DNA of 37,379 bases from Candidatus Jordarchaeia archaeon (GTDB lineage Archaea; Asgardarchaeota; Jordiarchaeia; Jordiarchaeales; Jordiarchaeaceae): contig JAHQXB010000014.1 of the NCBI GenBank assembly GCA_029856435.1, positions 1-37,379 of the forward strand. Reading direction: 5' to 3'. Positions 8,606 to 29,834 of the stretch are shown here, piece after piece (positions within the stretch are counted from its first letter, which is position 1; every line of letters begins with the position of its first letter). A model generated the notes under the pieces. That model had not been told where the DNA came from. It was given only the letters and a program-made list of their open reading frames with translations, and searched no databases. Position numbers and translations under genes: made by a program.

Positions 8606-8850
8606 TTGACACTCTCCACGGCTGAAGCCGGGAGACTCCTGCTTCTAAGGTTTTCGTCTGCTCTGTTCATTGCCCTTTTTAGGCTTCCACTTCACTTCAT
8701 TCCACATTAGCAGGGGTTGTGCCACAGCCCGTTAGCCTCGCCTCCATAGAGGCTAGCTGATATTTTTAAGGCTCCGACGACACCGGCGTTTAAACTTATT
8801 GACAATTCGTCCCGCGGTTAAAACTGTAGGCTTTCTTGTCGCTGCGGCTT
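8606..8850 (-). mobile_element. 245-bp non-autonomous IS200/IS605 element (left end, TATA, RNA scaffold, right end), element B
   Basis: Minus strand: TTAC|AAGCCGCAGCGACAAG-AAAG-hairpin ... GTTTAAAC ... right-end hairpin CTCCCGGCTTCAGCCGTGGAG-AGTGTCAA. Homologous to 21632-21876 and 29581-29834. Confidence 0.8.
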
Positions 8851-8906
8851 GTAAAGAGTATGATTGTTTATTAAGAAAAAAGGTTTTTGCAAAACACTGC
8901 TTTATT

Positions 8907-10274
8907 TCATGCTAGCAGTTCGGTTAGCTGATTTATGTCGTCTACCTTCTCTAAATTCTCAATTGTGGAGACTATTTCTCCGATTTCCTGTTTGGTTTTT
9001 ACTCCTTCTGCCATACTGTATAGTTTTTTCTTAACGTCGAAGCCCTCCTCAGGTTGGAGGAAGGCGTCATACTTGGAGAATTGGGTATAGCTGGTTCCGT
9101 CCTTCATGGTTATGGTCACTTCAGCCGATGATCCTACTGCGGGATCTCCTTTGAGTTTGATTTTCTTTATTAATTCTTGTATCTTAGGGTCTAGTATTTT
9201 TTCCATTTTTAATTGTCTTGGCGTATACTCCTTGTCAACCAAGGATATGGCCATGGGATAGTATCCGTCTATTAGAAGTGCTTGGTAGGTCCAGTCTCGG
9301 CGATTCTTGATTCTCTCATAGAAATCGGGGTAGCGTAGAGAGTAGAATCCCGCAGTCAACATCATGATAAATGGGCACCTTATACTTATCTCTTTAACAT
9401 TTTCCGGCTCAACTTTGGTGCTGTTTGCGGTTTTGAGGATGGCATCTATTGGAGCATTGTAGTAGGCCACCACTGGGAAGGGTTTGTTCACCAGTTTCAG
9501 TGTTCTCCAATCCCTTCCCAAATCTTTTGTGATTATCTCCAGTCTGGATAAGTCGGGTATATTGGAAGCCATGTTGCAGTATCCCAGAGAGTGCTCCAGT
9601 ATCTCGTGGCTTCCACTCAAACCCGCCTGAGCTAAATTAGCTGAAGTAACTCCTACATAGACGGGCATTCCGGTGAGCATACCCTTACAATCTGCAGCCC
9701 AGCTAATCATGGTGTTTCCCTGCACATGGGTGCACGCTATACCCATAGCGTCCATTAACTGTTCCACATCTAGACCCATCAATTTGCCCGCCACTAGTGG
9801 TACGTCAATTGCGTGATTCGGCGAGGCGTGCCCCACATGGACAGGGTCCACTAACACTTCTCCAGTTCTTCCTCCAACCTCGTTTCCAATAACTAGAGCG
9901 GTGATTATTTCCTTACCACTGGAGCCGTAACTTTCACCCACAGCCAAAGCTGTTGGAACACCCGCGTCTCCCACGTGTGATTCTGGTAAGTAGTCCTCAA
10001 ACTCCAAAATGCATGCAAGGTAAGAGTTCACCATAGCGGCGTTTCTCATGGAGGTTTTGTAGCCACCGCTAATCACTGTGGACTCCGGCTTGTCACCCCA
10101 ATTTTTAACCGCTTTGATCATCCGTTGCCCGGGCTCCATCATCGAACCGGCATATATTGTGGCTATCATATTTATCAACTGGTTCTTTACACAAGAAACC
10201 ACTTCCTTCGGAATATGTTCGTACCTCAGGTTGTAGGCCCATTCCGCAACTTTTCTTGTAATGCCTTGCCGCAT
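8907..10274 (-). CDS. MmgE/PrpD family protein
   Basis: 455 aa; AAMVNSYLACILEFEDY...SH, ALAVGE, G.E...ALVIGNEV and KPFP patterns of the PrpD fold. Confidence 0.85.
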   Translation of the reverse strand: MRQGITRKVAEWAYNLRYEHIPKEVVSCVKNQLINMIATIYAGSMMEPGQRMIKAVKNWGDKPESTVISGGYKTSMRNAAMVNSYLACILEFEDYLPESHVGDAGVPTALAVGESYGSSGKEIITALVIGNEVGGRTGEVLVDPVHVGHASPNHAIDVPLVAGKLMGLDVEQLMDAMGIACTHVQGNTMISWAADCKGMLTGMPVYVGVTSANLAQAGLSGSHEILEHSLGYCNMASNIPDLSRLEIITKDLGRDWRTLKLVNKPFPVVAYYNAPIDAILKTANSTKVEPENVKEISIRCPFIMMLTAGFYSLRYPDFYERIKNRRDWTYQALLIDGYYPMAISLVDKEYTPRQLKMEKILDPKIQELIKKIKLKGDPAVGSSAEVTITMKDGTSYTQFSKYDAFLQPEEGFDVKKKLYSMAEGVKTKQEIGEIVSTIENLEKVDDINQLTELLA

Positions 10275-10294
10275 TTTTTTACCACCTCTCTTTT

Positions 10295-10663
10295 CTACTT
10301 TAATAGGGATAGTAGCTGTACAACCATTCCCAGAGCCAGAGCTGTGTTTTGCGCATCCTTGTTCACTACAAGTCTATCTGCGGCGGCCACGCTTGCCAAG
10401 TTTGCCTCGCCACGAAAAACCGATTTCCAGTCTTCTTCGTCCATCTCCACTGTAGCGGCCACCCATTCACTCTCCCCCTCCTCAAAATAAGCGGTTTCCG
10501 GCTCCACAGTTAAAACATAGCTCTTCTTGCCCCTCACCTTCAAGTTATACATTTTGTTCTTGATATAGTTGTAGTACTGAGTGCCGCTAACCACTCGCCA
10601 GAGATACTCATAAGCCTTGCAAAAATGGTTCAAGCCTTCCTCTACTTCATTCAATATAGACAC
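10295..10663 (-). CDS. SCP2 sterol/lipid-binding domain-like protein
   Basis: C-terminal ATVEMDEEDWKSVFRGEANLASVAAADRLVVNKD..TALAL matches the SCP2 pattern; 122 aa; co-oriented between the M24 and PrpD genes. Confidence 0.6.
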   Translation of the reverse strand: MSILNEVEEGLNHFCKAYEYLWRVVSGTQYYNYIKNKMYNLKVRGKKSYVLTVEPETAYFEEGESEWVAATVEMDEEDWKSVFRGEANLASVAAADRLVVNKDAQNTALALGMVVQLLSLLK

Positions 10664-10672
10664 CTCAAAAAT

Positions 10673-11851
10673 TTATACTTCTCTTATTAAGGGCTCCACA
10701 GGAGTCTTGGTGAGCTTCTCAGCACCCTTCTTAGTGATGAGTATGGGTATTTCTAGTCTCAGGCCTCCCACTCCGGGATGGTTCAACTGTATGAAGAGTT
10801 CTTCCACCATGTTCTCTTTAAACTCCATACTCGCCCAAGGCTCGAAACTGCTAATGGGGGGATACCACTCATGGCCCACTATTCCCAGACCATGGCCAAA
10901 AACTGGCGGAACATGTGGAAGATACTCGGTCTGGAAGAGCTTCTTGGAAATTTCGTTGGCGATTTCTCCAATTTTCATCCCCGGCTGTATATTATCAAGC
11001 ATATAGTGCACTATTTCATTGTAGGTGTCTATGAGTTTCTGCTGCTTGGGTGTAGGCTTACCCATAACCACATTGTATGCGAGGTCCGAGTAGTAGAGTT
11101 CGTAGGTGCAGTGGAGATCTATGCAGACCACCTCTCCCTTTCTTACCTTTTTGTTGCTGGGAGGTGTACAGGCACACTTGCTTAGGGCTCCACGTTCCCC
11201 AGAATAGATTTCATCTCCCCCGGTTACTGGCCAGTTCCACATGGAACCCAGCTCCCGCATTCTTTTCTCTCCCGCCCCCACTATGGCGGTTTCCGTAACC
11301 CCCACGTCCAAAACTTCCAGAGCCGCCTTCTGACCCTCATCTGCAATCTGGGCCGCCTTCTTGAGCAGTTTTATTTCCTCCGGCTCCTTTATTACGGCCA
11401 CCTCGTTTACCACATCTGAGCCATCAACAATCTCTGCTTCTGGTAGACACTCCGTTAGGGTCTGATACTCAGCATGGGTGATTAGTCCCTCCACGAGCCT
11501 TGGGGAGAGGCTCATCTCTATTCCAATTGTGGCATTTTGGAGCTTATTCTCTTTGACTCTATTAGCAATTTGCTCCATCCAAGTTATACCCTTAATGGGC
11601 CCCCACTCGTACACGTCTTTTATCCAGGTTTCGGTTTTCACCCTAGAAGCCTCAATAACCGAGGGATAGACTGCCACTTCGCCCTCAAGGGGCACGTAGA
11701 CTGCGGCCCGGTAGGGGATAAAGGTTCCCGAAATGTAGCATACACTGGAAAGTCTTGTTCCCACCAGAATATCTATGCCTTTCTTCTCCATATTGGACCT
11801 TATTCTCTCGATCCTCTTCTCAAAATCAAACTTCGGCTTCAAAACATACAC
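10673..11851 (-). CDS. M24 family (Xaa-Pro peptidase/creatinase-fold) metallopeptidase
   Basis: Creatinase-like N-domain. Metal ligands appear retained: IDLH, SDL, GHGLG, VEE, GLRLE. Confidence 0.85.
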   Translation of the reverse strand: MYVLKPKFDFEKRIERIRSNMEKKGIDILVGTRLSSVCYISGTFIPYRAAVYVPLEGEVAVYPSVIEASRVKTETWIKDVYEWGPIKGITWMEQIANRVKENKLQNATIGIEMSLSPRLVEGLITHAEYQTLTECLPEAEIVDGSDVVNEVAVIKEPEEIKLLKKAAQIADEGQKAALEVLDVGVTETAIVGAGEKRMRELGSMWNWPVTGGDEIYSGERGALSKCACTPPSNKKVRKGEVVCIDLHCTYELYYSDLAYNVVMGKPTPKQQKLIDTYNEIVHYMLDNIQPGMKIGEIANEISKKLFQTEYLPHVPPVFGHGLGIVGHEWYPPISSFEPWASMEFKENMVEELFIQLNHPGVGGLRLEIPILITKKGAEKLTKTPVEPLIREV

Positions 11852-11976
11852 CCCTTCAAAAATTTTCTCAAGTAATCTAAGCTATTTATGGATAAGGGGT
11901 TAAAAGGCTTTTTAAGAATTTGTAACGCCATAATCAACACAGCAATAAAGAGGAGTTTACTTTTCGGGGGAGGGAC

Positions 11977-12474
11977 TCATTTTAGTTTTTCTCCGCAGTA
12001 CTTGCAGAATCGGGAGTCCCAGTCAATTTCCATGCCGCAGAAGGGGCAGAAACTCACCTTTGGTTTGGGTATGGGAGTGAATCCTCCTGAGAATAGGGTG
12101 TGAATCATTGTGCAGAGGTTTCTCCAGGAATCTTTTAGTTTGGCCTTTTCCCTCTCGAATGTCTCTTCGTCCATTTCTCCATTTTGGAAGTATGGTGTAA
12201 TTTCGTAACTTACAGTGATGGAAACATGCTTCTTATCCTTTTTGAAGGTGAGGGGCCCCACCGAGTCGGCATAGCATAACTTTCGGCTAATTAGGATTCG
12301 ACCTCCTTCCCAATCCTTTTCCACCATTATGAATCCCAAATTGCTGATGACTTCCTCTATGAGGTTGAAAAACTCTTCCTCAGACAAATCCACATCTTCA
12401 AATTCACCCAACCAGCGGAGCTCCGACAATTTCACACACCAGCAAAAACCATTTGATGAAACGAGGCCTGCCAA
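11977..12474 (-). CDS. Protein with C-terminal double zinc ribbon
   Basis: C-terminal CPFCG...FCKYCG. Start probably downstream of the annotated one. Confidence 0.7.
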   Translation of the reverse strand: MAGLVSSNGFCWCVKLSELRWLGEFEDVDLSEEEFFNLIEEVISNLGFIMVEKDWEGGRILISRKLCYADSVGPLTFKKDKKHVSITVSYEITPYFQNGEMDEETFEREKAKLKDSWRNLCTMIHTLFSGGFTPIPKPKVSFCPFCGMEIDWDSRFCKYCGEKLK

Positions 12475-12630
12475 ACAACACTCATTATTCGAAACTCATA
12501 GTTCACATATATAAAAATTTTGAAATAGAAAATGTTTCTCTCTCAAATTGTTTTATGTTTTTTGGATTTTTCGAAAAGGTCTTATACTTACGAATTCATA
12601 ATAAAGAAAAAAGGTTGTTAAGGAGAGGTT

Positions 12631-13716
12631 TTGATGAGTAGTGAGGATGTTTATCAGGAGCTGCAGAAGCACCTTGACAAGATGCCTGTGGGTTTTCCAG
12701 CCACAAATTCCGGCGTGGAACTAAAAATATTGAAGTACCTTTTCACACCCGAGGAAGCGGGAATAGCGACAAAACTAAGCTGGGAATTTGAGCCCCTCCA
12801 AACCATTTATGGCCGCTTTGACAAGTCGCAAATCTCAATGGAAGAGTTGAGAAACAAATTGGACAACATGGCCAAGAAGGGCATTGTTCACTACAAAATT
12901 GTGAAAGGCGAGAGGTACTACGCAAATCCACCACTCGTCGTAGGCATGTACGAGTTTCAGGTGAACAGGCTCACCAAAGAGTTCCAAGAGGACATTGACA
13001 AGTACATCTCTGAAGCATTTGCCCTAGAATTTATCCGCACCGGAATAAACCAGCTCAGAGTCATACCCATAGAACAAAGCGTAAAAAGCGAGGGCTTCAC
13101 AGCAACTTACGATGACCTAAGAGAAATTATTAAAAACGAGGAGGGCCCCTTTTGTGTGTCTGAATGCATATGCCGCAAGGCCGCAGAACTGAGGGGAAAA
13201 CCCTGCAGCAAGACCTCCCTTCGTGAAACCTGCATATCCCTTGGAGACACAGCCCAACTGTACATAGATAGCGGATGGGGCCGCCCCGTAAACAAGGAGG
13301 AAATTCTTGAGATACTAAGAAAAAATGAGCAAGAAGGTCTAATTCTCGAACCAAACAATGCCCAGAGACCAGACTACATATGCAGTTGCTGTACGTGTTG
13401 CTGCGGAATCTTATCCAGACTAAAAGCCTTTCCCCGCCCCACAGACCTTATCAGCTCAAACTACTTTGCCCAGATAGACCCCGAATTATGCACCGGCTGC
13501 GAAACATGTGTTCAGCGATGCCAAATGGAAGCACTAAAAATAGTAGACGAAATTTGCACAGTAGACACAGGCAGATGCATAGGCTGCGGAAACTGTGTAC
13601 CCGTATGCCCCTCCACAGCAATCACCCTGCGGAAAAAGGAAAAGGAATGGGTGCCACCCAAAACCCTAGAAGATCTTTACAGAAAAATTAAGAGCATAAA
13701 AGACCAGACAATCTAA
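12631..13716 (+). CDS. 4Fe-4S dicluster domain protein with Cys-rich central domain
   Basis: CICRK..C..C and ICSCCTCCC motifs plus two ferredoxin motifs CTGCETCVQRC and CIGCGNCVPVC; AGGAGAGG RBS. Confidence 0.85.
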   Translation: MMSSEDVYQELQKHLDKMPVGFPATNSGVELKILKYLFTPEEAGIATKLSWEFEPLQTIYGRFDKSQISMEELRNKLDNMAKKGIVHYKIVKGERYYANPPLVVGMYEFQVNRLTKEFQEDIDKYISEAFALEFIRTGINQLRVIPIEQSVKSEGFTATYDDLREIIKNEEGPFCVSECICRKAAELRGKPCSKTSLRETCISLGDTAQLYIDSGWGRPVNKEEILEILRKNEQEGLILEPNNAQRPDYICSCCTCCCGILSRLKAFPRPTDLISSNYFAQIDPELCTGCETCVQRCQMEALKIVDEICTVDTGRCIGCGNCVPVCPSTAITLRKKEKEWVPPKTLEDLYRKIKSIKDQTI

Positions 13717-13869
13717 AAGTTGCATCTCAGTCTTTCTATATCATCCTTTTTGCTCAACTAATTCTAAAAGCACTATTGTCGAAGGGAGATGTGCCAATTT
13801 TCTGCTGGAAGCCCAAACCTTTCTCTCTGGTCAAAAAAAGGAGGGGGAGAGGCTTTTTGATTGGTTTAT

Positions 13870-14688
13870 TTATGCGCCTTTGAATTTGGGTTCTCTTTTT
13901 TCGAGAAAGGCCATTACCCCTTCCCTGGCGTCTTCGCTGGCTGTTGCAATGCTTGCCAGTGCTCCCTCAAATATTAGGCCAGCATCCACAGGTCCTTGGG
14001 ATCCAAAGTTCAGCGCGTATTTTGCTACTCTCTGGGCCACTGGCGGTCCTTTTGCTAGTTTTAAGGCGTACTGTCTCACTTCTTCCTCAAAGTTTTCAAA
14101 GGAGAACACCTTATTTACCAAGCCGATTCTGTAGGCTTCTTCCTCGTTTATTGGCTCGCCTGAGAGTATAAGCTCCTTAGCTTTGGCAAGTCCGATTAGT
14201 CTAGGCAGCCTTATGGTGCCACCCCAGCCCGGAATTATTCCACGATCCACTTCTGGTTGTCCAAGCTGTGAACCCTTAGCAGCTACTCTGAAGTCGCAGG
14301 CACAGGCTAATTCGCATCCTCCCCCAAGGGCAAACCCCCTGATTGCAGCTATCACAATTTTGGGAAACTTTTCAATTTTGGTGGTTAATTTAGCCATAAG
14401 AAGAGCGGTGTCCATCTGTGCTACGGCCATGGGAACTCCAAGGGTTAGTGTCGGCGGCTCCTTAAGATCAGCTCCTGCAGAGAAAAACCTATCACCGGCA
14501 CCCATAAGAATAACCACGTGGATGTCCTGTTGGAACCACAGTTCGTCAAATGCCTTGTCAAGGGCGTTAATTAGTGCTACGTTCAAAGCGTTGGCTTTCG
14601 GCCTGTTCATAATAACCCATGCCAAGGGAGGCTCCTTTTTAACAATAACAATGTTTTCCGACAATTCTCTTACACTCCAATCTTCCAA
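13870..14688 (-). CDS. Enoyl-CoA hydratase/isomerase (crotonase) family
   Basis: FSAGADL, ALGGGCELACACDFR, GQPEVDRGIIPGWGGT; both catalytic Glu positions present. Confidence 0.92.
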   Translation of the reverse strand: MEDWSVRELSENIVIVKKEPPLAWVIMNRPKANALNVALINALDKAFDELWFQQDIHVVILMGAGDRFFSAGADLKEPPTLTLGVPMAVAQMDTALLMAKLTTKIEKFPKIVIAAIRGFALGGGCELACACDFRVAAKGSQLGQPEVDRGIIPGWGGTIRLPRLIGLAKAKELILSGEPINEEEAYRIGLVNKVFSFENFEEEVRQYALKLAKGPPVAQRVAKYALNFGSQGPVDAGLIFEGALASIATASEDAREGVMAFLEKREPKFKGA

Positions 14689-15005
14689 AACTGAACATAA
14701 TTAAATAATTCAAATTGTAAATGAACGCTTTTTCAGCCCTTTATAAAAATCTTCCGCAAAAATAGTCAGTAACAAAACCACCGAATAGCACAGGCATAAA
14801 TGTTCTAATTCTTAAAGCATCAAAGGAGGCTGCGAAATTAAAAAAAATAAGATTCCCTTATATCTCTGCCAGGTTTTGGCAATTAGCTCTCGGATACTCT
14901 TTTGGATTATGTGTGTCCTCTAGAATCCTAATTTCAGCCCAGTTATTGATGAATCTAAATTCAAAAAATAAAAGTTGTTTTGTTTCTTTGTCCCTTTTTT
15001 GGGGG

Positions 15006-15470
15006 CTATTTTGGTTCCGTTTTCACTGTGAGTTGGCATACTGTTTCATTGTTATCCACATTGATGCCCAAAACTTGGATAATGTTTGTAGCATCAATTG
15101 TACCCATCAGCATAACAGACGTGACACATAGTGGGCAGGCTTTGTATCCTATAGATTTTCCATATTTACACATTTCCAGCCAAGGGCATTGAACAATTTT
15201 CATACTAAGATTGTTTCCAGAGTAGCTCAATTCGAACTCTTTGCCAAATACTCCGAAATTTTTACCCACAATTTCTAAATCCTTTATGAGCTCTTCCATA
15301 GTTTTAGGCGGAGCCGTACCTAAAAATTGTTGGGCCAGATTTTCAACCATGGGACCTAATATTTTTGATGATTGACGTCCGAGTAGCATGGGATTTATTC
15401 CCATCTTGTCCGCGGCACTAAGTATGGTGCCAAAAACGAATCCGTAAAAAAGATTTACTGTATCCGACAT
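15006..15470 (-). CDS. Small Cys-containing V4R/ligand-binding-like domain protein
   Basis: Probable start ATG 15470 (MSDTVNLFYG); the ORF-track extension to 15620 lies in AT-rich upstream DNA. CPW...C...CPLC...C pattern. Confidence 0.5.
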   Translation of the reverse strand: MSDTVNLFYGFVFGTILSAADKMGINPMLLGRQSSKILGPMVENLAQQFLGTAPPKTMEELIKDLEIVGKNFGVFGKEFELSYSGNNLSMKIVQCPWLEMCKYGKSIGYKACPLCVTSVMLMGTIDATNIIQVLGINVDNNETVCQLTVKTEPK

Positions 15471-15825
15471 AAATGTTTTCACCTTCACCAGAGTTTTTAA
15501 ATGATTAGAGCTTGCTAAGGGTTGGAAACCCTGTTTTTTGAACTTGTTTCGATTAGTTTCGCTTTCCGTTTTCACTGCTTCAAATATTACGAGTTGTATA
15601 AGTAAGTTATTATGTAGCATATATACATAATAAATATTTAAATGTATTGATTCTCCAATAAAACAGTATAGTCGGAAGTCGCCAAAGAGGCCAAAGGATT
15701 AAATCAATTTGGGAGGAGACATGAAAAAACATTTTCGCTATTACGCGGATTAATAAATGTTTTCGGATGAGTTCAGCTCACCTAAACCCTATCGTTAGGC
15801 CAAATTGCTCACCCTATCGAACACG

Positions 15826-16179: not shown

Positions 16180-16288
16180 TCACACCCCTAAATTATGTCA
16201 ACTTACCATAATTAATCACTCCCCCCAGAAGAGGAAAAAGAGAGGGATGCGAAGTATTTTGGGTTTAACTTTTAATTGTAGTTTTGTG

Positions 16289-19790: not shown

Positions 19791-19950
19791 AAAATTCATG
19801 TCAACGAACTACATACTACAATAAGGTCCCAATTTACAGGAAGCTTCAGTAGCCACTACCACAGAAGGTAGTTTACCGAATTTCAGCGATGTAAGTTATT
19901 GCACCTTTTTTAAAAATATGTGGGGAGATGGGGTTGTGGTTGGTATTTTT

Positions 19951-21332: not shown

Positions 21333-21631
21333 ACCCTTTTCACCATCCTAATTTAATTTAGGTACAAAATATATGAAATAAGTTATAGTTTCAGGATATA
21401 ACGTTGGCGGAGTCATTTTTTAGCTATAGATTTGGAAGTTTTCCCAGCCGCCTTCCTATAAATGGTAATAATTTCTGCTGAGAGGAAACGTTTTTGTTTG
21501 AGTCGTTTGAGAGTTTTCAGTCTTTGGATTCATCAGATCTACTTTTTGGTTTTGAATCACTCTTCAATCCCTAGCATTTTCGTTAATCTGCCTTCTGCTT
21601 TAGATGTGGGCGAGTCTTAATTAGTCGATGG

Positions 21632-21876
21632 TTGACACTCTCCACGGCTGAAGCCGGGAGATTCCCTCATATAAGATTTTCATCGGCTCTGTGTTCATCG
21701 CCCTTTTTAGGCTTCCACCTCACTCCACTCCGCCTTAGCAGGGGCTGTGCCACCAGCCCGTTAACCTCGCCTACATGGAGGCTAGCTATTTTTAAGGCTC
21801 CAACGGCACCGGCATTTAAACTTATTGACAATTCATCCCGCGGTTAAAACTGTAGGCTTTCTTGTCTCTGCGACTT
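21632..21876 (-). mobile_element. 245-bp non-autonomous IS200/IS605 element, element C
   Basis: Same length and layout as element B. Minus-strand right end GGAATCTCCCGGCTTCAGCCGTGGAGAGTGTCAA; TATA-like TTTAAAT at 21814-21820. Left flank reads ATTT rather than TTAC. Confidence 0.8.
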
Positions 21877-22029
21877 AAATTTAAACTATGAGTGGAAAAT
21901 ATTCATAAAAACTAGTAACTATATACTTTTATTGATTTTGAGAAAATAATGAGTTGTGCCTTTTTCAAAAGCGTAAATTAAATCTTTCTATTTATTATGT
22001 TTTAGTCCGATGTGTGGAGAGTGGTGTTT

Positions 22030-23154
22030 TTGGCTAAGAAGGCTAATGATGTTTCTTGGACTCCGGAGATGTTGGAGAAGGGTGGTTATCCACACTTTAT
22101 GCTGAAGGAGATTCATGAGCAGCCGAAGGCTTTGAGAAATGCTCTCAGTTTAAGGTTAGAGGTTTGCCAAGAGGCGGCACGGATTCTTAACGATTCCCAA
22201 CAGGTGTATATTACTGCGGCGGGCACATCGAATCATGCAGGGTTGGCTGGGCGTTACATGTTCACTAAACTTTCGCGGGTTCGAACTCAGAACATTTTGT
22301 CTTCTGAGTTTCCGGAGCTTACCGGGGAGCTTCTATGCGAGGACGATGTGGTTCTCGCTATTAGCCAGTCTGGGGAAACGGCGGACACAATAAATGCGGT
22401 TAAACATGCTAAGAGGCAGGGGGCAAAGGTGATTTCAGTGACAAATGTTGTGGGTAGCACTATGAGTAAACTCTCCGACTATACTATTTACACCTATGCG
22501 GGGCCAGAGTACGGGCTTGCAGCCACCAAAACATTCCTTGTTCAAGTTGCATGCCTATCATTGTTATCGCTGGATTTGTCTCTCATGAGGGGTTCTCTTA
22601 GTGATGGTGAGGTTAAAACTCTTAGAGAGGGTTTAATGAATACGCCTTATGTGGTTGATAGGACAATTAAGAGGCAGGATAGGGTGGTTAGAGATGTTGC
22701 TTATCAATTTGCGAATAAGCAGAGTTTCCTTTTCTTGGGGCGTGGTATTAGCACCGCCACGGCCATGGAGGGAGCGCTAAAACTTAAGGAAACTGCTTAT
22801 ATTCACGCTGAAGCCTATCCTGCGGGGGAGTTCAGACATGGACCAATGGCACTCATTGAGCCGGGATTCCCGGTAATAATAATTGCGCCTCCAGATGAGA
22901 CTTATGATAGGCTGGTTAAAAATTTGGGGGAGGTTAAGGTGCACCAGGCGAAAATAATAAGTGTGGTGCAGGAGGATGATTCTGAGGTGCGGGCATTGTC
23001 AGACCATGCAATTAGTATTCCGGAGACTGCGCCCATGTTTTCTCCCATAACCTTTGTGGTTCCCCTACAGTTGTTCGCTTATTTTGTGGCGTTCAGGAGA
23101 GGGTATAATCCGGATAAGCCCCGATACCTGGTAAAAGCGGTCACGGAGCCCTAA
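22030..23154 (+). CDS. SIS-domain sugar-phosphate isomerase/deaminase (GlmS C-terminal domain only, GlmD-like)
   Basis: AGTS, SQSGETADT, ATKT, EGALKLKE, EFRHGP and VKAVT motifs; no glutaminase domain. Probable TTG start 22030 after GGAGAGTGG (ORF track start 22012). Confidence 0.85.
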   Translation: MAKKANDVSWTPEMLEKGGYPHFMLKEIHEQPKALRNALSLRLEVCQEAARILNDSQQVYITAAGTSNHAGLAGRYMFTKLSRVRTQNILSSEFPELTGELLCEDDVVLAISQSGETADTINAVKHAKRQGAKVISVTNVVGSTMSKLSDYTIYTYAGPEYGLAATKTFLVQVACLSLLSLDLSLMRGSLSDGEVKTLREGLMNTPYVVDRTIKRQDRVVRDVAYQFANKQSFLFLGRGISTATAMEGALKLKETAYIHAEAYPAGEFRHGPMALIEPGFPVIIIAPPDETYDRLVKNLGEVKVHQAKIISVVQEDDSEVRALSDHAISIPETAPMFSPITFVVPLQLFAYFVAFRRGYNPDKPRYLVKAVTEP

Positions 23155-23172
23155 AGGCCTTGGTGAAGTTTT

Positions 23173-24654
23173 ATGCTTGTCAAAGAATGGATCGAGAAGT
23201 ATTTTCAGGCACTCCAAGAGGTTAAAAGAAACATTGGGCTCTGCCACATGTTTATCACGGGTTTAAACACTAATATTGATGGACTAAAACACGTCAGGGG
23301 CCCAGAAATAGAAAAGATAGTAAATGAAGAAAAATTGGCAGAAGAAGTTCTCCACAAGTTGAACAATCCTCCTAGGGAAATTGTGACTTTTTCCGATGTT
23401 TTGGCCGGTATACTCTACTGTGCCAAGAATGGTGATGGAGAAGAATGGTTCATTCGCAAACCCCGAATTACTGAGATGATAAAATCAGTTTTTGGCTATG
23501 ATAGGTTGCGTATGGGTGGGCAGTGTGGAATAATGACCAATGTGCTGGCCCTTATGAACCTAAAAGTTATTCCGAACGTGGTGGAGCTCCCCCCACTGCA
23601 GGCGGAGCAATTCACCAAGAACTGTGGGGAAATCCTTATACCTCGGTTTGAGGGGGGAAAAATTGTTTTCAAGAAACCTTTAGAAGCGGCTAGAGAAGAA
23701 GACAAAGTCTTTATACATTGGATATTTGAGTTCGACAATCAATTCAAAGCAAGAATTAACCACGAAATTGTGGAGGCTCCGGTTGAAAACAGGTTCATAG
23801 CAACCTATGATGATGAAAACATTAAGCTAAAAACGGATCCCGCTTTTCGGGAGGGAACCCTAAAAGTAATCCAGAAAGTGGGAAGGGTGATACTCTCCGG
23901 CTACCATATGCTTCAAAAGGTTTATCCTGATGGTTCCAAGCCTGAAGACTACATAAGGGAAACCCTAGACCTCATCAATTCCTGGAGGGAGAGAAATCCG
24001 GAAATTAGGATACACAGCGAGATAGGCTTCCTAGCTGAGCCAGACCTGAGAAAATCGGTTCTTGACATGGTGGCTCCAAATGTGGATTCTCTTGGTTTAA
24101 ATGAGGATGAATTAGCAGATAATCTACACACCCTAGGAGATAGGGATGGTCTTGCGGAAATAAAAGCCTTGGACGCTCCAAAGATTTATATGGGCGCAAG
24201 AAAGATTTTGGAGAAGTATCACTTGCCACGCATAATGGTGCACACTAGAGAATTCTCCCTAAGTTTGACTACCCCAAATTATGGAATCCATCCCCGAGAC
24301 GAACTATACTCTATAATGTTCGGTTCACTATTCGCAGCCACACTGGCACACACTGGAAACTTCCCCACAATCCAAGTCGCAGAAAAAACTCTCAAAAGCG
24401 GCGAACTAAAAGTAAGCATGAGGGGCATGGCGGAACACCAGAAACTCGCAGAACTACTTGAAAATGAGGAAGGCTACCCCAAGCAGAAATTTCTAGAAGA
24501 GGGATTCACAGATACAGAGCCCTCAATAGCCTTTGTTCCTTCAAAGTTAACGGAGCCCAAAGCCACTGTGGGAATGGGAGACACCATAACCTCAGCCACC
24601 CTAGCAGCACAAGAAGCACTAACACGCAGAGCCAAAAAACACCAAAACAATTAA
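23173..24654 (+). CDS. ADP-dependent glucokinase (PfkC family), glucose/glucosamine type
   Basis: NTNID, MGGQ.GIM.N, DSLGLNEDE and TVGMGDTI motifs. IHWIFEF and APVENRFI resemble glucokinase-type rather than PFK-type members. Confidence 0.85.
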   Translation: MLVKEWIEKYFQALQEVKRNIGLCHMFITGLNTNIDGLKHVRGPEIEKIVNEEKLAEEVLHKLNNPPREIVTFSDVLAGILYCAKNGDGEEWFIRKPRITEMIKSVFGYDRLRMGGQCGIMTNVLALMNLKVIPNVVELPPLQAEQFTKNCGEILIPRFEGGKIVFKKPLEAAREEDKVFIHWIFEFDNQFKARINHEIVEAPVENRFIATYDDENIKLKTDPAFREGTLKVIQKVGRVILSGYHMLQKVYPDGSKPEDYIRETLDLINSWRERNPEIRIHSEIGFLAEPDLRKSVLDMVAPNVDSLGLNEDELADNLHTLGDRDGLAEIKALDAPKIYMGARKILEKYHLPRIMVHTREFSLSLTTPNYGIHPRDELYSIMFGSLFAATLAHTGNFPTIQVAEKTLKSGELKVSMRGMAEHQKLAELLENEEGYPKQKFLEEGFTDTEPSIAFVPSKLTEPKATVGMGDTITSATLAAQEALTRRAKKHQNN

Positions 24655-24737
24655 TAAACACCACAAATATAGAGTAACCATAAATATGATTAGGTTAGGT
24701 GACTTTTCCCATTTTTTCTTGAAATGGAGGATTTGTT

Positions 24738-25577
24738 TTGTGTCAATATTGTGTTGAACATGGTCAGGGTACTAAATGGTATTTGAATCCTAAGAATTTG
24801 AATCTTAAGAAGGCGTGGGAAGATGCTAACGTTAGATCAGTTTTGGAGTCTCTGGCACTCGGTGGGCCCAAGGCGCTGGTTGAAACCATAGCTTCTGTGA
24901 ACGCCCTAGTTGAGGAGCTACCCTACTCCAAAGACGCGTTAGAGGCACTAAATAAAATGTCTGAGGGGGCTAACGGTGGACAAGTGGTTCCCCTAGAAGA
25001 CACAATCCAAATTCTAAAGACTCCTCAGAAGTTCGACATGAAAATAGGGTTAACCTACTGTGCCTGCAGAAAACAGTGGGGGGGACAAAACAAAATGGTC
25101 TGCATGCACTTTGAACCATTCTGCGACCTTCTAAAAAAGTCCCAGGGCACCCTATCCAAATATGATAGATACATCACACCCGAGGAAGCCATAGAACTCT
25201 GCAAAGACTGCTACAAGGAGGGACTCGTGCAGTGGGTTCAATGGTGCTCGATGCCCAACGTAATAGGAATCTGTAACTGCGAATTACCCTACTGCATAGT
25301 GTTCAGAACCAGACTAATTTCAGGCGTGAGAAACGCAGCCATAAAAGGCCACTACATTGCGCAGATTGACCAGAAAAGGTGTGATGGCTGCGGAGGAAGC
25401 CCCCAATGCTTACTAGCATGCAACTTTGGAGCCATAAGGTTCTCAAGACTGGAGCAGTACTCAGTCGTCGACCCCACAATGTGCTTCGGCTGCGGAGTAT
25501 GCAGAGAACGGTGTCCAAACAAGGCCATAAGCCTCATTGATAGGGAAAGCGTGGCAGTGGCAAAGGACCTCTGGTAG
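24738..25577 (+). CDS. 4Fe-4S binding protein with N-terminal CxxC
   Basis: MCQYC..HG start, CACRK, ICNC, and two C-terminal ferredoxin motifs (CDGC...C...C; CFGCGVC...CP). Confidence 0.8.
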   Translation: MCQYCVEHGQGTKWYLNPKNLNLKKAWEDANVRSVLESLALGGPKALVETIASVNALVEELPYSKDALEALNKMSEGANGGQVVPLEDTIQILKTPQKFDMKIGLTYCACRKQWGGQNKMVCMHFEPFCDLLKKSQGTLSKYDRYITPEEAIELCKDCYKEGLVQWVQWCSMPNVIGICNCELPYCIVFRTRLISGVRNAAIKGHYIAQIDQKRCDGCGGSPQCLLACNFGAIRFSRLEQYSVVDPTMCFGCGVCRERCPNKAISLIDRESVAVAKDLW

Positions 25578-25602
25578 CTAGAAAGAAAAGGAGGTAGCAA
25601 CT

Positions 25603-25836
25603 TTGAAAAAGTACAACATAGTTGTCGACATGGGGAAGTGTGTGGCACCCCAAAATTGTGACTTGAAATGTATCAAGACTTGTCCTCTTAAAGTATTCGC
25701 TTATTATCCCATTGACACTTCAAGAGAGGACAGCCCAGTTATGATAACTGCGACTTTCCCCTTTTCCTGTAATGGATGCAACCTCTGCGTCGTAGCGTGC
25801 AAGCCAAGAGCCATATCTGTTTCTCCACCCGCGTAG
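25603..25836 (+). CDS. Ferredoxin (2x[4Fe-4S] type)
   Basis: C...NC...C...CP and CNGCNLC...C motifs; GGAGGT RBS. Confidence 0.8.
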   Translation: MKKYNIVVDMGKCVAPQNCDLKCIKTCPLKVFAYYPIDTSREDSPVMITATFPFSCNGCNLCVVACKPRAISVSPPA

Positions 25837-25940
25837 GACGTGGTTTTGTTCGATTAGTCTCCGAGGAAGTGTTTATAGGGCTTCTTTTCCCATTTAGAAC
25901 CCTAAAATAAAAAATGGAACCGGGTGAGTCTAAATCGTTC
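25836..25940 (+). repeat. Diverged copy of the fold-back MITE
   Basis: GTTCGATT...GTGTTTATAGGGCTTCTTT...ATTTAGAACC...ATGGAACCG is colinear with the consensus; begins at the ferredoxin stop codon. Confidence 0.55.
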
Positions 25941-27223
25941 TAGCATAGATTCGCCATCCCTAAATTGCTGGTAGCCTCCAATTTTCTATTAGGAGTGGTA
26001 AGTACGGGTTCAAGGTGGAAGGGTGACGAAAAGGGGGGTTTCCTACTGGTGGGAGGAAGCCTAACAGTAAAAAGTTAACGCCTTGTTTCCTCGCCCTAGC
26101 AGTAATCTGTCTGTTCGCTGGACTAAACCCCTTACTACATTACATTTAAGCCTGTTTATGGGATGTTAAAACTGCTTCTATTTAGAATAAAGCTTGTTAA
26201 CTTCCAACAGTTAACGTTAAAGAAAAACTATTAAAATTATTATGCCTCAAAAACAGCCATACATATACATGTCGTGCAGCCGACTCCAGCCAAAACCCGG
26301 AGTGCGGGAAGTTTGAAAAAGTCCAATGGGGACAGGGCCACAACTAGGAACATTCCCCTACCGAAAGCAGTGGAGATGTGCCTGTCTCACCCGTTCCCCC
26401 GGGCGATAGATTCACAGGATAATATGTTTTTACCATTGTGTCCTAATAATTTATGGTTTTATCGGTGTTTTTCCTCAATTTTTAATATTTCCATCCCATT
26501 TAAGTGGTGAGAAACAGTTTTTGAGAAGAGCCAAAAAAAGGGCCCAAAAACACGAGATTTTGCGAATCTATCGCCGGGAGAAAGCCTCCCCATGAAACCG
26601 AGGAAAAAACCAAGTTACGCGAGGTCGACGCTGGGTCAGAACGGGTTACCTCAATTATAGGTACTTAGTGTAGTTGTTAAGGGAACAGAACATATTTCTT
26701 TCATTGACGGCAATCTTCTTACTTGCAGGCCTCGCAAGTTTCATTTTTTCCATTATTCGCAAGTAGTTCACGATTCTAACCAAGACTTGAAAAAGAGTCC
26801 AAATCAACTGTCAGTTCGAGTAAATGACAGCTTCCCAAATGTTAGACCAGAAAAACCGATAAAAGCCAGTGTTGAGGTATCTTTACAAATAATTAAACAG
26901 TATATTAACATAATTCTCATAGCTAATTGGACGCTTCCCACAAATAGGTTTGGGGATTCTTACTTCCAACCCCGCACAAAGAGCTCTGGAAGCAATGAGT
27001 AAACCGCCTAGTCAGCATGCTCTTCTTGGGGAATGGCTAATTTGTGGCTTAATTTTTTTCTTTCAAAAATTTTTAGCATCTATTCAAAATTTTTTTTATT
27101 ACTATTTAGAAAATTTTAATATTTTCCCCCATTATATGGGTTTAATAGTTTCCTCTGGTAATTGTAGGCTTCCCTGAAAACTTTTATGGTTATGCAGGAT
27201 TGATTTGGTGTGGATGGATGGAA

Positions 27224-28720
27224 ATGTCTGGAAAGTATGATGTAATAGTGGTTGGCGCGGGTCTTGGGGGACTCTCCGCCGCGGCCTCGCTGGCTAAGAA
27301 TGGACAGAAGGTTCTTTTACTAGAGAAACATTATAGGCCTGGCGGCTATGCGGGAAGTTTTGTGCGGGGTAGATTCGAATTCGAAATCGCCTTGCATGAA
27401 CTCTCCGGTCTGAACCTGGACGCTAAACGCGGCTTCTTCTACAAGTATTTGGAAAATCTGGGAATAACAAAGAGGATTGAATTCGTCAAGCTGGACACTG
27501 TTTACCGCTCCGTGTTTTCCGATATGGAGGTAACGGTTCCCGCGGGAAGAGAAGAGGCCGAAGGCGTTTTGGTAGACACCTTTCCCAAAGAGGCTGAAGG
27601 AATAAAACGTTTCATGGCAAGGATGAGCGCCACCAACAGGGCCCTAACCCTAATACAAAGAGGGGAAAGCTTTTCAAACCCCGAAATAAAAGAAAACTTC
27701 CTACCCTACCTAGACAAAACCCTAGCCGACGTCCTACAAAAGGATGTTAAAGACCCTAAAGCCCGGGCAGTCTTATCCCAACTGATGGGCTACTGCGGCC
27801 TGCCCCCATCAGAACTAGCATACGTAATATACGCCATTGTTTATGACACATATATACACCTTGGGGGAGCCCAAATCAAAGGCACATCCCAAAGCCTCGT
27901 CAACGCATTTGTAGATATTATCCAAGAGGCGGATAGCGAAGTTCGAGTCAACTGCGGAGTTAAAAAAATCCTCACCGAAGGCGACAGAGTAACAGGAGTA
28001 GTTACGGAAAATGGCGAAACCTTCCTCTCAGACCACATAATCTCAAACGTTAATCCTTTGACAACCTGCGCCAAAATGATTGGCGTAGACAAAGTTCCCA
28101 GTTCCTTTTTTGAAAAACTGCAAACCAAAGAAATCGCCATAGGAACCATGAACGTGTACCTAGGATTAGACGCACCCCACCGAGAACTGGGAATAGATGA
28201 ATTCGAAATATTCTTTAACGCAGGCTACGACTTCGACGCAGCTTGGGCAAAAAGTAGAGTCAGTCTAGAACCCGCAGACTTCGCCCTAGCTACCTACAAT
28301 GTTGCATACCCGGAAGCCTCTCCCCCAGGAACCACAGCTGCAGTCATCACCACTCTAAGCTACGCCCAACCCTGGTACAAAGTTCCCCCCTCAGAATACG
28401 TAGACACCAAGAACAGGATGGGCGAAAAACTACTAAATAAATTGGAAAGATTCTATCCCGGAGTCAGAGAGCACATAGAGGTCATTGAAGTATCCACACC
28501 CCTAACAAACATGCGCTACACGGGAAATCTCGGAGGCTCCATCCTTGGAACCCCCTACAGCCCAAACAACATATTTGGAAACCGCCTACCCCAACAAGGA
28601 CCCTTAAAAGGACTTTACTTTGCCGGAGCATGGACCCAAATAGGAGGAGGATTCCAAACCTGCATCATGTCCGGTATGTTAGCCGCACAAACGGTAATGG
28701 CTCAACTAATGAAAAAGTAG
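27224..28720 (+). CDS. Phytoene desaturase/CrtI-RetSat-like FAD-dependent oxidoreductase, paralog 1
   Basis: YDVIVVGAGLGG...LLEKH..PGGY FAD motif; STPLT..RYT and LYFAGAW...GGG C-terminal motifs. ATG 27224 (ORF track start 27200). Confidence 0.85.
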   Translation: MSGKYDVIVVGAGLGGLSAAASLAKNGQKVLLLEKHYRPGGYAGSFVRGRFEFEIALHELSGLNLDAKRGFFYKYLENLGITKRIEFVKLDTVYRSVFSDMEVTVPAGREEAEGVLVDTFPKEAEGIKRFMARMSATNRALTLIQRGESFSNPEIKENFLPYLDKTLADVLQKDVKDPKARAVLSQLMGYCGLPPSELAYVIYAIVYDTYIHLGGAQIKGTSQSLVNAFVDIIQEADSEVRVNCGVKKILTEGDRVTGVVTENGETFLSDHIISNVNPLTTCAKMIGVDKVPSSFFEKLQTKEIAIGTMNVYLGLDAPHRELGIDEFEIFFNAGYDFDAAWAKSRVSLEPADFALATYNVAYPEASPPGTTAAVITTLSYAQPWYKVPPSEYVDTKNRMGEKLLNKLERFYPGVREHIEVIEVSTPLTNMRYTGNLGGSILGTPYSPNNIFGNRLPQQGPLKGLYFAGAWTQIGGGFQTCIMSGMLAAQTVMAQLMKK

Positions 28721-28732
28721 GGAGAAACCACC

Positions 28733-29574
28733 ATTTCTGAGAAGTATGACGCCATAGTTATTGGTGCGGGTATGGGGGAACTCTCTGCTGCCGCCACTCT
28801 AGCCAGTAATAGGCAGAGTGTTTTGCTGCTGGAAAAACATTATAGGCCTGGTGGGTACGCGGGAAGTTTTGTGCGGGGTAGATTCGAATTCGAAACCGCC
28901 CTCCATGTACTATCCGGATTGGATTTAGAGGGAAAAACGTGGCTCACTCTACAGGAATTTTGAGAGCCTTGGAATCACGAAAAGGGTGGACTTGAAGGTG
29001 GACAATTTTTAAGCTGTTTATCCAGATATGAAGATCACAGTGCCAGCCAACCGGGAGGCTGCGGAAGAAGTTTTGGTGGACGTGTCTCCCCATGAGTTGG
29101 AGGGAATAAAGTGTTTCTTGGACAGAATGGCGGCTACAAACAGGACCTTGGCATTGTTAACCCGCACGGGAGACATTTCTCAGAAGGAGATTAAAGAGGA
29201 CTTTCTTACTTGCCGAGAAAAAACTCTGGCCGACGTTCTGCATATCGATGTGAAGGATCCTTAAGGCTCGTGCCGTGTTATCCCACATTATGGGATATTT
29301 TGGTTTGCCACCCTCCCAAGTTTCGTACATAGTGTGTGCGATTGCTTATGATACTCTTCTGAGATAGGGAATAACGCAGGTTAAGGGCACCTCCCAGACT
29401 CTATCCAACGCCTTCGTGGATATCATTGAGGAAAAGAGTAGCGAGGTTAGGCTCAGCCGTGGAGTTAAAAGAATCCTCACCGAAGGCCGAGTGAAAGGAA
29501 TGCTAACCGAAAACGATGAAAAAATATTTTTAGACTACATCGTTTCAAACGTTAAACCGTTGTTGGATAGTTAA
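28733..29574 (+). pseudogene. Decayed, 3'-truncated third paralog of the CrtI-like oxidoreductase
   Basis: Start ATG changed to ATT; GAGMGE instead of GAGLGG; at least two +1 frameshifts (near 28935 and 29262) and in-frame TAA/TAG. Homology stops at the SNV.P motif 6 bp before element D. Confidence 0.85.
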
Positions 29575-29580
29575 CATTTT

Positions 29581-29834
29581 ATGACTATCCGTTCCACCTC
29601 GGCCCTGAAGCCGGGAGATTCTGCTTCTAAGGTTTTCATAGGCTCTGTGTTCATTGCCCTTTTTTTAGGCTTCCACTTCACTCCACCTATAGGAGCAGGG
29701 GCAGTGCCACCAGCCCGTTAACCTCGCCTCCATGGAGGCTAGCTATATTTAAGATTATGACGGCACCGGCATTGGAACTTATTGACAATTCATCCCATGG
29801 TTAAAACCGTAGGCTTTCTTGTGGCTGCGACTTG
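29581..29834 (-). mobile_element. ~250-bp non-autonomous IS200/IS605 element, element D (more decayed)
   Basis: Homologous to B and C; TTAC target at 29835-29838 (minus strand). Right end altered and TATA-like box mutated to TTCCAAT. Confidence 0.75.

Follow-up and report, generated by a model that had tools for sequence, protein, structure and literature searches.

The window, that is, the whole stretch of 37,379 nucleotides analysed here from a Jordarchaeia genome, contains three homologous elements on its minus strand, named B, C, and D. These raise the question of whether they form a dispersed, CRISPR-less set of differently programmed guide RNAs for a TnpB or TldR protein supplied in trans, as was proposed in a preliminary description, or whether they are ordinary parasitic miniature transposons (minis), the simpler alternative considered there. 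The homology of the three elements was upheld by our analyses, all of them being copies of a single repeat of about 245 bp, and they are old remains, devoid of genes, of an IS608-type (IS200/IS605) transposon in Jordarchaeia, an Asgard archaeon. The features discussed below are the following.

8606..8850, minus strand: element B, preceded by TTAC on its left side and closing in TCAA on its right
8590..8605, minus strand: would-be 16-nt guide of B, AGATAGAGTAATGGAA, the flank past TCAA
21632..21876, minus strand: element C, a 245-bp mini made up of the left end, a putative promoter, the omegaRNA scaffold in the tnpB tail, and a right end that closes in TCAA; left TTAC missing
21837..21860, minus strand: left-end recognition module of C, AAAG (21860-21857) plus the imperfect hairpin CCTACAGTT-TT-AACCGCGGG (21856-21837)
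21814..21826, minus strand: BRE/TATA-like motif AATAAG-TTTAAAT in the left end of C, a putative promoter
21632..21816, minus strand: tnpB 3' remnant of C, an omegaRNA-type scaffold (N-A-G-A-V-G-A-L-K-I-A-S-L-H..NGLVAQPLL.., from its translation against the TnpB alignment)
21632..21664, minus strand: right end of C, with GAAT at the hairpin foot, the hairpin TCTCC-CGGC-TTCA-GCCG-T-GGAGA with a bulged T, GTG, and TCAA (21635-21632)
21616..21631, minus strand: would-be 16-nt guide of C, CCATCGACTAATTAAG, the flank past TCAA
29605..29834, minus strand: element D, a relic preceded by TTAC, whose TATA box has changed to TTCCAA and whose right end is truncated, with TCAA and the 3' half of the hairpin missing

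Copies of the repeat and their anatomy

A genome-wide count, which had been suggested as a check, was obtained by querying the window's own genome (G000) with element C. It gave nine near-full and at least five partial copies, several of them at contig ends, and at least nine copies were dispersed at unrelated sites, which is indirect evidence of mobilisation by TnpA. Pairwise identity among the copies was 86-96%, and since no pair was closer than about 96% there was no sign of recent activity or movement. Neither a transposase nor a nuclease is encoded in the 245 bp, where all that is left of tnpB is a tail with a broken frame. The copies differ in indels of 1, 2, 4, and 5 nt, and the reading frames are broken in different ways in each of them; therefore, an interpretation of the minis as small protein genes was dropped. 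Terminal inverted repeats and target duplications were absent, and sub-terminal imperfect hairpins were present at both ends.

The ends of the elements agreed for the most part with what had been described before, including the AAAG and hairpin of the left end, the TTAC at B and D, and the right end ...GTGGAGAGTGTCAA, closing in TCAA, in B and C. TTAC formed the left flank in seven of the nine near-full copies, B and D included. The left flank of C lacks it and reads TTTAAATTT/AAGTCG (here and below a slash within a sequence marks a boundary). In the left-end hairpin of both B and C, a G>A change leaves an A/C mismatch in the stem. The 33 nt of the right end of C are identical to the right end that lies beside a tnpB tail on contig C56 of the same genome. 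Element D had been given as 29581-29834; its homology reaches only to about 29605, and 29581 therefore does not mark an end of the element.

Behind the AAAG and hairpin, the left end of the copies carries a conserved promoter motif, GATAAG/TTTAAAT. As noted earlier, B and C preserve its form CAATAAG-TTTAAA unchanged, and D carries a mutated version. In full-length relatives, GATAAG-TTTAAATA is kept at a fixed place after GATGAATTGTC, about 22 nt before the first start codon, and the same left-end module precedes tnpA in contigs C166 and C58 of G000 and in full-length elements of many archaea. In each copy this left end is followed, without any spacer, by the final ~185 nt of tnpB, which begin with the RuvC-III "NAD" codons and extend to the right end. 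The deletion junction lies at the AAT of the TATA box, where the tnpB-derived part begins (...TTTAAAT/GCC GGT GCC, read as N-A-G-A-V-G, formerly NADAVG). A junction at about position 93 of the mini, where several contigs break, was rejected, given that the translation places the start of the tnpB-derived part at about position 61, at the TATA box. All copies in G000 trace to one deletion event; their origin is thus a single deletion that fused the left end, after its TATA box, to the RuvC-III codons of tnpB. The earlier reading of the anatomy, with coding DNA deleted and promoter, scaffold, and right end kept, was right. Its recognition of a tnpB tail (..NGLVAQPLL..) in the interior also held, and only the length of ~160 nt has to be raised to ~185 nt of tnpB-derived sequence. 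With the putative left-end promoter, the omegaRNA scaffold, and the right end all retained, the 3' flank would serve as the guide.

Scaffold conservation and decay of the window copies

The 3' part of the element is a structured RNA scaffold conserved in the TnpB family across many archaeal phyla. RNAalifold on plain MAFFT alignments recovered some of the helices only; the structure used was drawn up manually on the basis of folds of individual sequences, and its pairs were then counted against slid and shuffled controls. In 46 sequences, 87.3% of the cells were paired vs. 39-49% in the slid controls, and 31 pairs had double-sided changes vs. 11-15 in the controls; the observed score was reached by none of 500 shuffles. 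Compensatory changes across the family were also present in helices 6-7, those of the right-end hairpin. In addition, the synonymous diversity of tnpB drops from ~0.5 to 0.15-0.3 exactly over the scaffold stretch, and the last ~15 codons of tnpB fall in three different reading frames among members of the family, which indicates that the DNA or RNA is what is conserved. An additional helix in the RuvC-III codons, H0, was paired in 82% of the cells and was left out of the constrained scaffold because synonymous variation was not reduced over it. The minis align with TnpB-linked loci in translation and as DNA, and their matches to the nhmmer and covariance models span the full model length. No Rfam family matched, either at the gathering score or at E-values up to 10.

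The scaffold model R1 scored 167.9 bits on C (over 21632-21816), 150.6 bits on B, and 117.5 bits on D. The scaffold of C comprises helices H1 (21785-21766) and H2 (21759-21742), the long closing helix H3, H4, and the right-end hairpin, and the transcript start predicted from archaeal TATA-to-start spacing is near 21791, just upstream of H1. Of the 45 scaffold pairs, 37 are kept in B and 37 in C; the range is 37-40 for the minis and 42-44 for TnpB-linked relatives. The stems quoted in the preliminary description are consensus forms. The actual stems are GCCTCCATGTAGGC in C and GCCTCTATGGAGGC and GGGCTGTGGCACAACCC in B, so that neither copy is pristine. Moreover, the 3' strand of the long closing helix of C bears four changes, H2 of B contains a mismatched pair and lacks 1 nt, and an A/G mismatch in H1 is common to all copies.

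Within the G000 family, changes amounted to 0.41 events per site in stems vs. 0.24 in loops, and of the 24 stem changes 14 break pairs and 10 keep them. A comparison of stem and loop changes among the G000 copies thus gave no sign of purifying selection on RNA structure. The structure is supported by covariation at the level of the family and partly eroded in the window copies. The window copies are old and drifting. D is dead, while in C the TTAC is gone and one helix is partly lost; parts needed for mobility are missing from both. The decay of the copies looks neutral.

Partner genes, guides, and target sites

A search for tnpA and tnpB with the same ends had also been proposed, and it was successful for tnpA, while tnpB was found in partial or pseudogene pieces only. 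Contig C166 of G000 carries an intact Y1 (HUH) tnpA (139-aa ORF, HIH and SYYVST motifs, PF01797 at 133.6 bits), and the left end directly upstream of tnpA on C166 and C58 is 88-89% identical over 37-43 nt to that of the minis. The cognate tnpB was only partly assembled, its pieces lying at contig ends (the start on C166, the tail on C56 and C156), and the tail on C56/C156 is ~80% identical to the scaffold of the minis. The nearest complete homologue, on contig C145, is a pseudogene, and contig C160 has an uninterrupted 309-codon tnpB piece with a diverged scaffold that is ended by the contig edge. A full-length sister element with a matching left end has an ORF with Y1_Tnp, OrfB_IS605, and Cas12f1-like TNB domains. 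A metagenome scan for a full-length parent with the 34-nt scaffold core of the mini gave no exact match.

The TnpB of the family has an invariant Gly in IVLGRL where typical TnpBs have the RuvC-II Glu. Both other catalytic motifs retain their Asp, YIDLG in RuvC-I and NAD/HRD in RuvC-III, a C4 zinc ribbon is present, and the protein is transposon-borne with a Y1 TnpA. The same Gly-for-Glu RuvC-II is shared with clade RIIr-5, an assignment that rests on the motif only, and this "rearranged" RuvC-II clade is predicted to be active and transposon-borne in the passages of PMC10691335 that deal with it.

With regard to the guides, the 3' flank differs in every copy, and the flanks quoted beforehand for B and C were correct. 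The 16-nt guides of ten copies had no second site in G000 at 0-1 mismatch, and matches with 2-3 mismatches were at chance level; TTAC plus the guide of B or of C had no exact match in viral contigs. In the sister genomes, homology picks up again exactly at both ends of C, and the orthologous site on contigs C167 of G003 and C573 of G004 is empty (TTAC/CCATCGACTAATTAAA). The guide of C matches this TTAC plus target at 15 of 16 positions, and its relation to the empty sister site is ordinary homing geometry. Element B lies 56 nt downstream of an MmgE/PrpD-family gene on the same strand. At the orthologous site on contig C167 of G003 there is a remnant of ~40 bp (start of the left end, right-end hairpin, and TCAA), so the insertion of B is older than the species split. 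D sits in a stretch without homologues in the sister genomes. Loci and guides are therefore not conserved across the sister genomes, the B site being reduced, the C site empty, and D truncated.

These results bear directly on the opening question. If the host had domesticated the minis as a CRISPR-less repertoire, each guide being programmed differently for a TnpB or for a TldR without nuclease activity, this would account for the different 3' flank of each copy and for a family TnpB without the canonical RuvC-II glutamate. However, at 0-1 mismatch in G000 (ten guides) and as exact matches in viral contigs (B and C) the guides match nothing beyond their own flanks (for C, also the empty sister site), there is no sign of selection on RNA structure, the copies are drifting, with one truncated, and the sister species lost or shrank them; the glycine, on its side, is that of the clade predicted to be active. 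Additionally, TldRs (TnpB-like nuclease-dead repressors) are also TnpB-derived and RNA-guided, with guides that need not be transposon flanks, but they are immobilised and linked to host genes and their guides match host promoters, whereas the minis have transposon ends and guides that match their own flanks. A repertoire of this kind is, in consequence, extremely improbable, and the simpler alternative of ordinary parasitic minis fits best, with guides that match their own sites only and copies that drift.

Origin of the minis, rival readings, and significance

Elements B, C, and D are very probably non-autonomous deletion derivatives (PATE/MITE-like) of an IS608-type IS200/IS605 transposon which kept its cis-acting parts and are now drifting. 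These parts are the AAAG and left hairpin reading TTAC, the GAAT, right hairpin, and TCAA, and additionally an own, putative promoter and a structured omegaRNA scaffold of ~155 nt overlapping the tnpB tail. Following the established biology of IS608 and TnpB, a Y1 TnpA acting in trans (the one on C166 is a candidate) would excise the mini and insert it in single-stranded form on the 3' side of TTAC, leaving the target unduplicated. A transcript made from the left-end promoter would begin ~5 nt ahead of the first scaffold helix and continue past TCAA into the flank, and this RNA would have a 16-20-nt guide matching only TTAC plus the own flank, that is, its own empty site. A compatible TnpB in trans may then cut vacated sites, and recombination would restore the element (homing). 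This agrees with IS608 of Helicobacter pylori and the "peel-and-paste" IS200/IS605 family in the insertion 3' of TTAC, the right-end cleavage after TCAA, the tetranucleotides next to the hairpins (AAAG on the 5' side of the left one, GAAT at the base of the right one), the imperfect hairpins with an unpaired base, the lack of inverted terminal repeats and target duplication, and the Y1 (HUH) TnpA partner. The minis differ from these in being gene-less, in their Asgard archaeal host, in a promoter of archaeal BRE/TATA type, and in an associated TnpB from the clade with Gly in place of the RuvC-II Glu.

Relatives of the minis bear on the role of the scaffold. Independent minis with the same 3' part were found in G003 (contig C72), G004 (contig C274), G005 (at least 40 copies), and Nitrososphaera and Bathyarchaeota records, a sample partly biased in this direction because most of them were found through scaffold homology. 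There are at least five independent deletion lineages, with breakpoints within ~10 codons of RuvC-III, just upstream of the onset of synonymous constraint. The IS608 transposase needs far less of the right end than 185 nt. That the scaffold was retained incidentally, the minis being pure TnpA substrates with the ~185-nt tail as a chance remainder that never had an RNA role, would suit the single deletion event behind all G000 copies, their neutral-looking decay, the detection bias just mentioned, and the scaffold-less derivatives of ~45 bp at two loci in G003, which show that the scaffold is not needed for persistence. It is nevertheless very unlikely in view of the recurrent breakpoints, the modest right-end requirement of the transposase, and the G005 family, which has a scaffold, if a shortened one, even though nothing but a match to 33 nt of the right end led to it.

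At the other extreme, the minis might be stand-alone omegaRNA genes that work at present from the left-end promoter with a TnpB from elsewhere, serving homing and retention or cutting the DNA of insertion-free relatives. In this regard, B and C keep the promoter motif, most scaffold pairs, and TCAA with its flank; the predicted start is just upstream of H1; the guide of C fits the sister-species target; and several independent minis retain the whole constrained stretch. Standalone omegaRNAs also act in trans in another organism, according to the part of PMC10691335 concerned with them. Against this stand the stems without a selection signal, the damaged helix of C and the H1 mismatch of all copies, the fewer pairs kept than in TnpB-linked relatives, the lack of any copy pair above ~96% identity, and a cognate TnpB seen as a pseudogene or contig-broken pieces. 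Present function of this kind is therefore unlikely, and the deletion derivatives are better regarded as drifting leftovers.

It must be noted that omegaRNA-encoding PATEs (palindrome-associated transposable elements) are described in the relevant passages of Meers 2023 (PMC10055086), and that standalone omegaRNAs used in trans are already published (Altae-Tran 2021, as summarised in PMC10691335; PMC10055086). As portrayed in those passages, such elements of OMEGA systems are likewise ORF-less, with IS200/IS605 ends, a guide-RNA scaffold, and a guide that is the flank past the right end, and TnpA and TnpB would be needed in trans. The cases presented there come from bacteria (Geobacillus, Ktedonobacter), and for some of them RNA and activity were recorded, whereas the minis are old and degraded and have the left-end promoter fused straight to the scaffold. 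Since omegaRNA-bearing PATEs were already described, the minis belong to a type of element that is known rather than to a new guide system, and they open no new kind of system.

A bolder and improbable extension is that the minis serve, or served until a short time ago, as omegaRNA genes sufficient in themselves, with an RNA used in trans by the Gly-type TnpB, and thus as gene-drive units cutting insertion-free alleles. If this were true, the left-end promoter would be placed so that transcription begins at the scaffold edge, the guides would match TTAC-flanked empty alleles in sister lineages, allowing drive in a recombining, polyploid archaeal population, and such selection would explain why deletions that arose independently in several archaeal phyla all end a little upstream of the scaffold. 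Apart from this, omegaRNA-only IS200/IS605 minis are now documented in an Asgard archaeon, and a covariation-supported scaffold model is provided for a widespread archaeal TnpB clade with rearranged RuvC-II, which could aid the choice of guide scaffolds. Finally, the repeated stops just upstream of the scaffold provide modest comparative evidence that non-autonomous elements depend for their survival on the guide RNA as well as on the transposase sites.

Mini-element family and its derivation

The metagenome-assembled genome (MAG) that contains the window as contig C84 comprises 181 contigs and 3.54 Mb. Minus-strand reading and alignment of three stretches showed that elements B, C and D belong to one repeat family of gene-less minis, as the preliminary description had observed, although C proved to lack TTAC, and D to reach only to 29605 at its right end and to lack TCAA. 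An IS200/IS605 mini of a second family is also present in the window.

8606-8850, minus strand: element B, TTAC and TCAA both present
21632-21876, minus strand: element C, TCAA present, TTAC absent
29605-29834, minus strand: element D, TTAC present, homology ending within the right-end hairpin, TCAA absent
1944-2274, plus strand: second-family mini, ORF-less, 331 bp, TTAC followed by AAAAGCTACAGG ... GGGGAGTGTCAA

Searching the genome with element C revealed 9 near-full and at least 5 partial copies, several at contig ends. When aligned with their flanks, the element start (AAGTCGCAG...) lay directly 3' of TTAC in 7 of the 9 copies, and the 3' terminus was ...GTGGAGAGTGTCAA. Pairwise identity among copies was 86-96% (92-97% to the consensus), so no recent burst took place. 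At the left end, AAAG is directly 5' of an imperfect hairpin (CCTACGGTT-TT-AACCGTGGG), while at the right end GAAT stands at the foot of the hairpin TCTCC-CGGC-TTCA-GCCG-T-GGAGA (with a bulged T), followed by GTG-TCAA. The pairs TTAC/AAAG and TCAA/GAAT are those of IS608, and the mini ends show the same ones. One copy (G000:C138:69234-69579, L012/L013) is interrupted between TATA/H0 and H1 by a nested, AT-rich stretch of 130 bp whose ends (GCTATAGA...TCTATAGC) are inverted; H0 is a helix within the RuvC-III codons and H1 the first helix of the scaffold. This insertion might itself be a tiny mobile element. Four contig breaks fall at the same point of the mini. The left hairpin of the second-family mini is distinct, and the element also contains a TATA-like box and a scaffold of greater length, which matches the scaffold covariance model weakly (25 bits); relatives are on contigs C144 and C142.

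On contigs C166 and C58, a Y1 transposase gene is immediately preceded by DNA that matches mini positions ~12-54. The C166 transposase ORF is uninterrupted, with HUH (HIH) and SYYVST motifs and a PF01797 score of 133.6 bits. In the sister genome G005, a full-length element consists of a mini-type left end, a 557-codon ORF and a mini-type right end. This ORF, with Y1_Tnp, OrfB_IS605 and Cas12f1-like TNB domains, is a decayed tnpA fused to tnpB and runs through the right-end hairpin to TCAA and an adjoining TGA. Translated from the TATA box, the mini reads N-A-G-A-V-G-A-L-K-I-A-S-L-H-G-G-E-V-N-G-L-V-A-Q-P-L-L..., which is the tail of TnpB starting with RuvC-III (NADAVG / HRDAVG). Therefore, the founder deletion fused the left-end ...TTTAAAT to the tnpB codons AAT-GCN-GAY, with ~185 nt of tnpB tail and right end retained.

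The left ends of full-length elements in many phyla have the sequence ...GATGAATTGTC-GATAAG-TTTAAATA..., with the first start codon ~22 nt on. Given the established spacing from BRE/TATA to the start of leaderless archaeal mRNAs, we infer that an archaeal BRE/TATA promoter lies here and that the mRNA it drives is leaderless. The minis retain CAATAAG-TTTAAAT; at the usual spacing, the predicted start of transcription is near mini position 86, which in C is window ~21791, and H1 would follow ~5 nt later. Altered forms of the motif occur in D (TTCCAA) and in the copy on C181.

Conserved RNA scaffold and its presence in other minis

Hundreds of proteins in archaeal MAGs, from Bathyarchaeia, Nitrososphaerota and several Asgard groups among others, are closely related to the family TnpB (residues 133-557 of protein P0001). 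Over nearly identical DNA, family members use three different frames for the last ~15 codons (protein alignment A2, columns ~400-450), giving the C-termini ..RSKNLPASAVESVN, ..EARISRLQPWRVS and ..EAESPDFSRGECQ. The stop codon of some family tnpBs falls in the flank past TCAA, so the end of the protein is set by the insertion site. From RuvC-III to TCAA, 46 sequences were aligned (4 minis, 5 genus relatives and 37 TnpB-linked loci), and six helices proposed from single-sequence folds were then tested by pair counts. Paired cells amounted to 87.3%, vs 39-49% when partners were slid 1-3 columns; pairs with changes on both sides numbered 31, vs 11-15 in the slid controls; and the covariation score was 0.342, a value reached by none of 500 shuffles, vs 0.06-0.10 in the slid controls. 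Synonymous diversity is ~0.45-0.6 along tnpB, RuvC-III codons included, and falls to 0.15-0.3 from the codons past 'LNIA' to the gene end, so that the constrained element has its 5' limit at helix H1 (mini position ~90). All of this stretch plus ~30 nt is still present in the minis, and their interior is a structured RNA that the TnpB family has conserved, matched by no family in Rfam. The anatomy first proposed, namely left end, promoter motif, tnpB-tail scaffold and right end, is supported.

Several independent deletion derivatives have kept this 3' part. Two of them, in which the tnpA start is still present, have junctions at MNADVV (G003:C72) and LNIARK (G004:C274); the others are minis of Nitrososphaera/Methanomethylicaceae and Bathyarchaeota records, a G005 family and the second family of the window's own genome, to which 1944-2274 belongs. 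A decayed mini of this architecture is identical in Nitrososphaera sp. and Methanomethylicaceae records (L072:410-620, L079:1-190), which could be a binning mix-up or a recent transfer. G005 harbors at least 40 copies of a ~280-bp mini (L146, L149, L151, L152), many at contig starts, comprising the left end, TATATAAATA, a duplicated GACGC..CCCC..GGG motif and the right end of B and C; its scaffold is shortened, a 5-bp hairpin replacing the ~70-nt H4 region. The clustering of deletion breakpoints just upstream of the scaffold is suggestive but no proof, because most such minis were detected via scaffold homology. At two unrelated loci (L047 on C211, ~1245-1293; L049 on C141, ~1478-1527), G003 also contains the same ~45-bp element, formed, after TTAC, by AAATCGTTGGCTAGAAAG, a single hairpin CCCCCGACTTCAGCCGTGGGG and AGTGTCAA. 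The two copies resemble 'solo-hairpin' forms that a deletion from the left to the right hairpin would leave, and their identity prompts the question of whether such a stub can still move. Together with a remnant at the G003 counterpart of the B site, they count against a strict scaffold requirement.

Candidate partner proteins in the genome

The preliminary description had called for a tnpA/tnpB with the same ends. An intact tnpA was found on C166; the linked tnpB is divided by the assembly, with its start on C166 and its tail and right end on C56 and C156, where the scaffold is ~80% identical to that of the minis. Another family tnpB, on C145 (L062, G000:C145:3600-6200), is a pseudogene with several stops, bounded by TTAC...TCAA ends of its own. 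In place of tnpA, a 41-aa DUF7557/VapB-antitoxin-like ORF lies upstream, an arrangement resembling RHH/MazE-TnpB (PMC10691335). In addition, C160 carries a family tnpB with a diverged scaffold, truncated by the contig end but uninterrupted over the 309 codons present, and C43 a 431-codon tnpB of another clade. Family TnpBs have an invariant Gly at the site of the typical RuvC-II Glu (A2). This was rejected as a sign of a dead TldR, since it matches the 'rearranged' RuvC-II clades, which are predicted to be active (Altae-Tran et al. 2023, PMC10691335).

Insertion sites, decay and guides

At the C locus, homology with three sister genomes breaks off and restarts exactly at both element ends. The right flank follows a TTAC in both G003 and G004 (TTAC, then CCATCGACTAATTAAA; C's own flank is CCATCGACTAATTAAG), and this site is the empty target of C, TAM included. 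Directly left of it in G003 and G004, and partly in G005, is a HEPN and nucleotidyltransferase pair (L171, G003:C167:23900-25000, 265-976). Both this pair and the 'TAC' of TTAC beside C are absent from the window's genome; therefore, the left cleavage site of C has been lost, and a deletion abutting its left end took out the toxin-antitoxin-like module. The orthologous B site in G003 (L172, G003:C167:11300-11520) holds a ~40-bp remnant, ...GAGAGACAAG-CTCCCGACTTCGCGTGGAGTATCAA, followed by the orthologous flank (AGATGG...). With the start of the left end, a degenerate right-end hairpin and TCAA, it is an internally deleted form of the B insertion, which is therefore older than the split of these species. 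No counterpart of the stretch surrounding D was found in the sister genomes.

Substitution events were counted by class across 14 aligned copies and fragments. Events per site were 0.41 in scaffold stems, 0.24 at unpaired scaffold positions, 0.50 in the left hairpin, 0.28 in the right hairpin and 0.29 in BRE/TATA, and the stem events were 14 pair-breaking and 10 pair-keeping. B and C have in common a G>A change by which the left hairpin acquires an A/C mismatch. The closing helix of C is altered at four places in its 3' strand, H2 of B contains one mismatch and one deletion, and an A/G mismatch in H1 is common to all copies. Of 45 pairs, 37-40 persist in the minis, vs 42-44 in TnpB-linked relatives. 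The pattern of the window copies looks like neutral decay after insertion; the single indication of constraint comes from copy C4, whose right hairpin shows one compensatory double change.

The 16-nt flanks of 10 copies had no other site with 0-1 mismatch in the genome, matches with 2-3 mismatches were at chance level (only two of them preceded by TTAC), and TTAC plus guide of B and of C had no exact match in viral contigs. The proposed dispersed guide repertoire is thus unsupported. The idea of standalone omegaRNAs serving a TnpB in trans is already in print (Meers 2023, PMC10055086; Altae-Tran 2021, summarised in PMC10691335), and the locus adds one more case, from an archaeon and rather worn.
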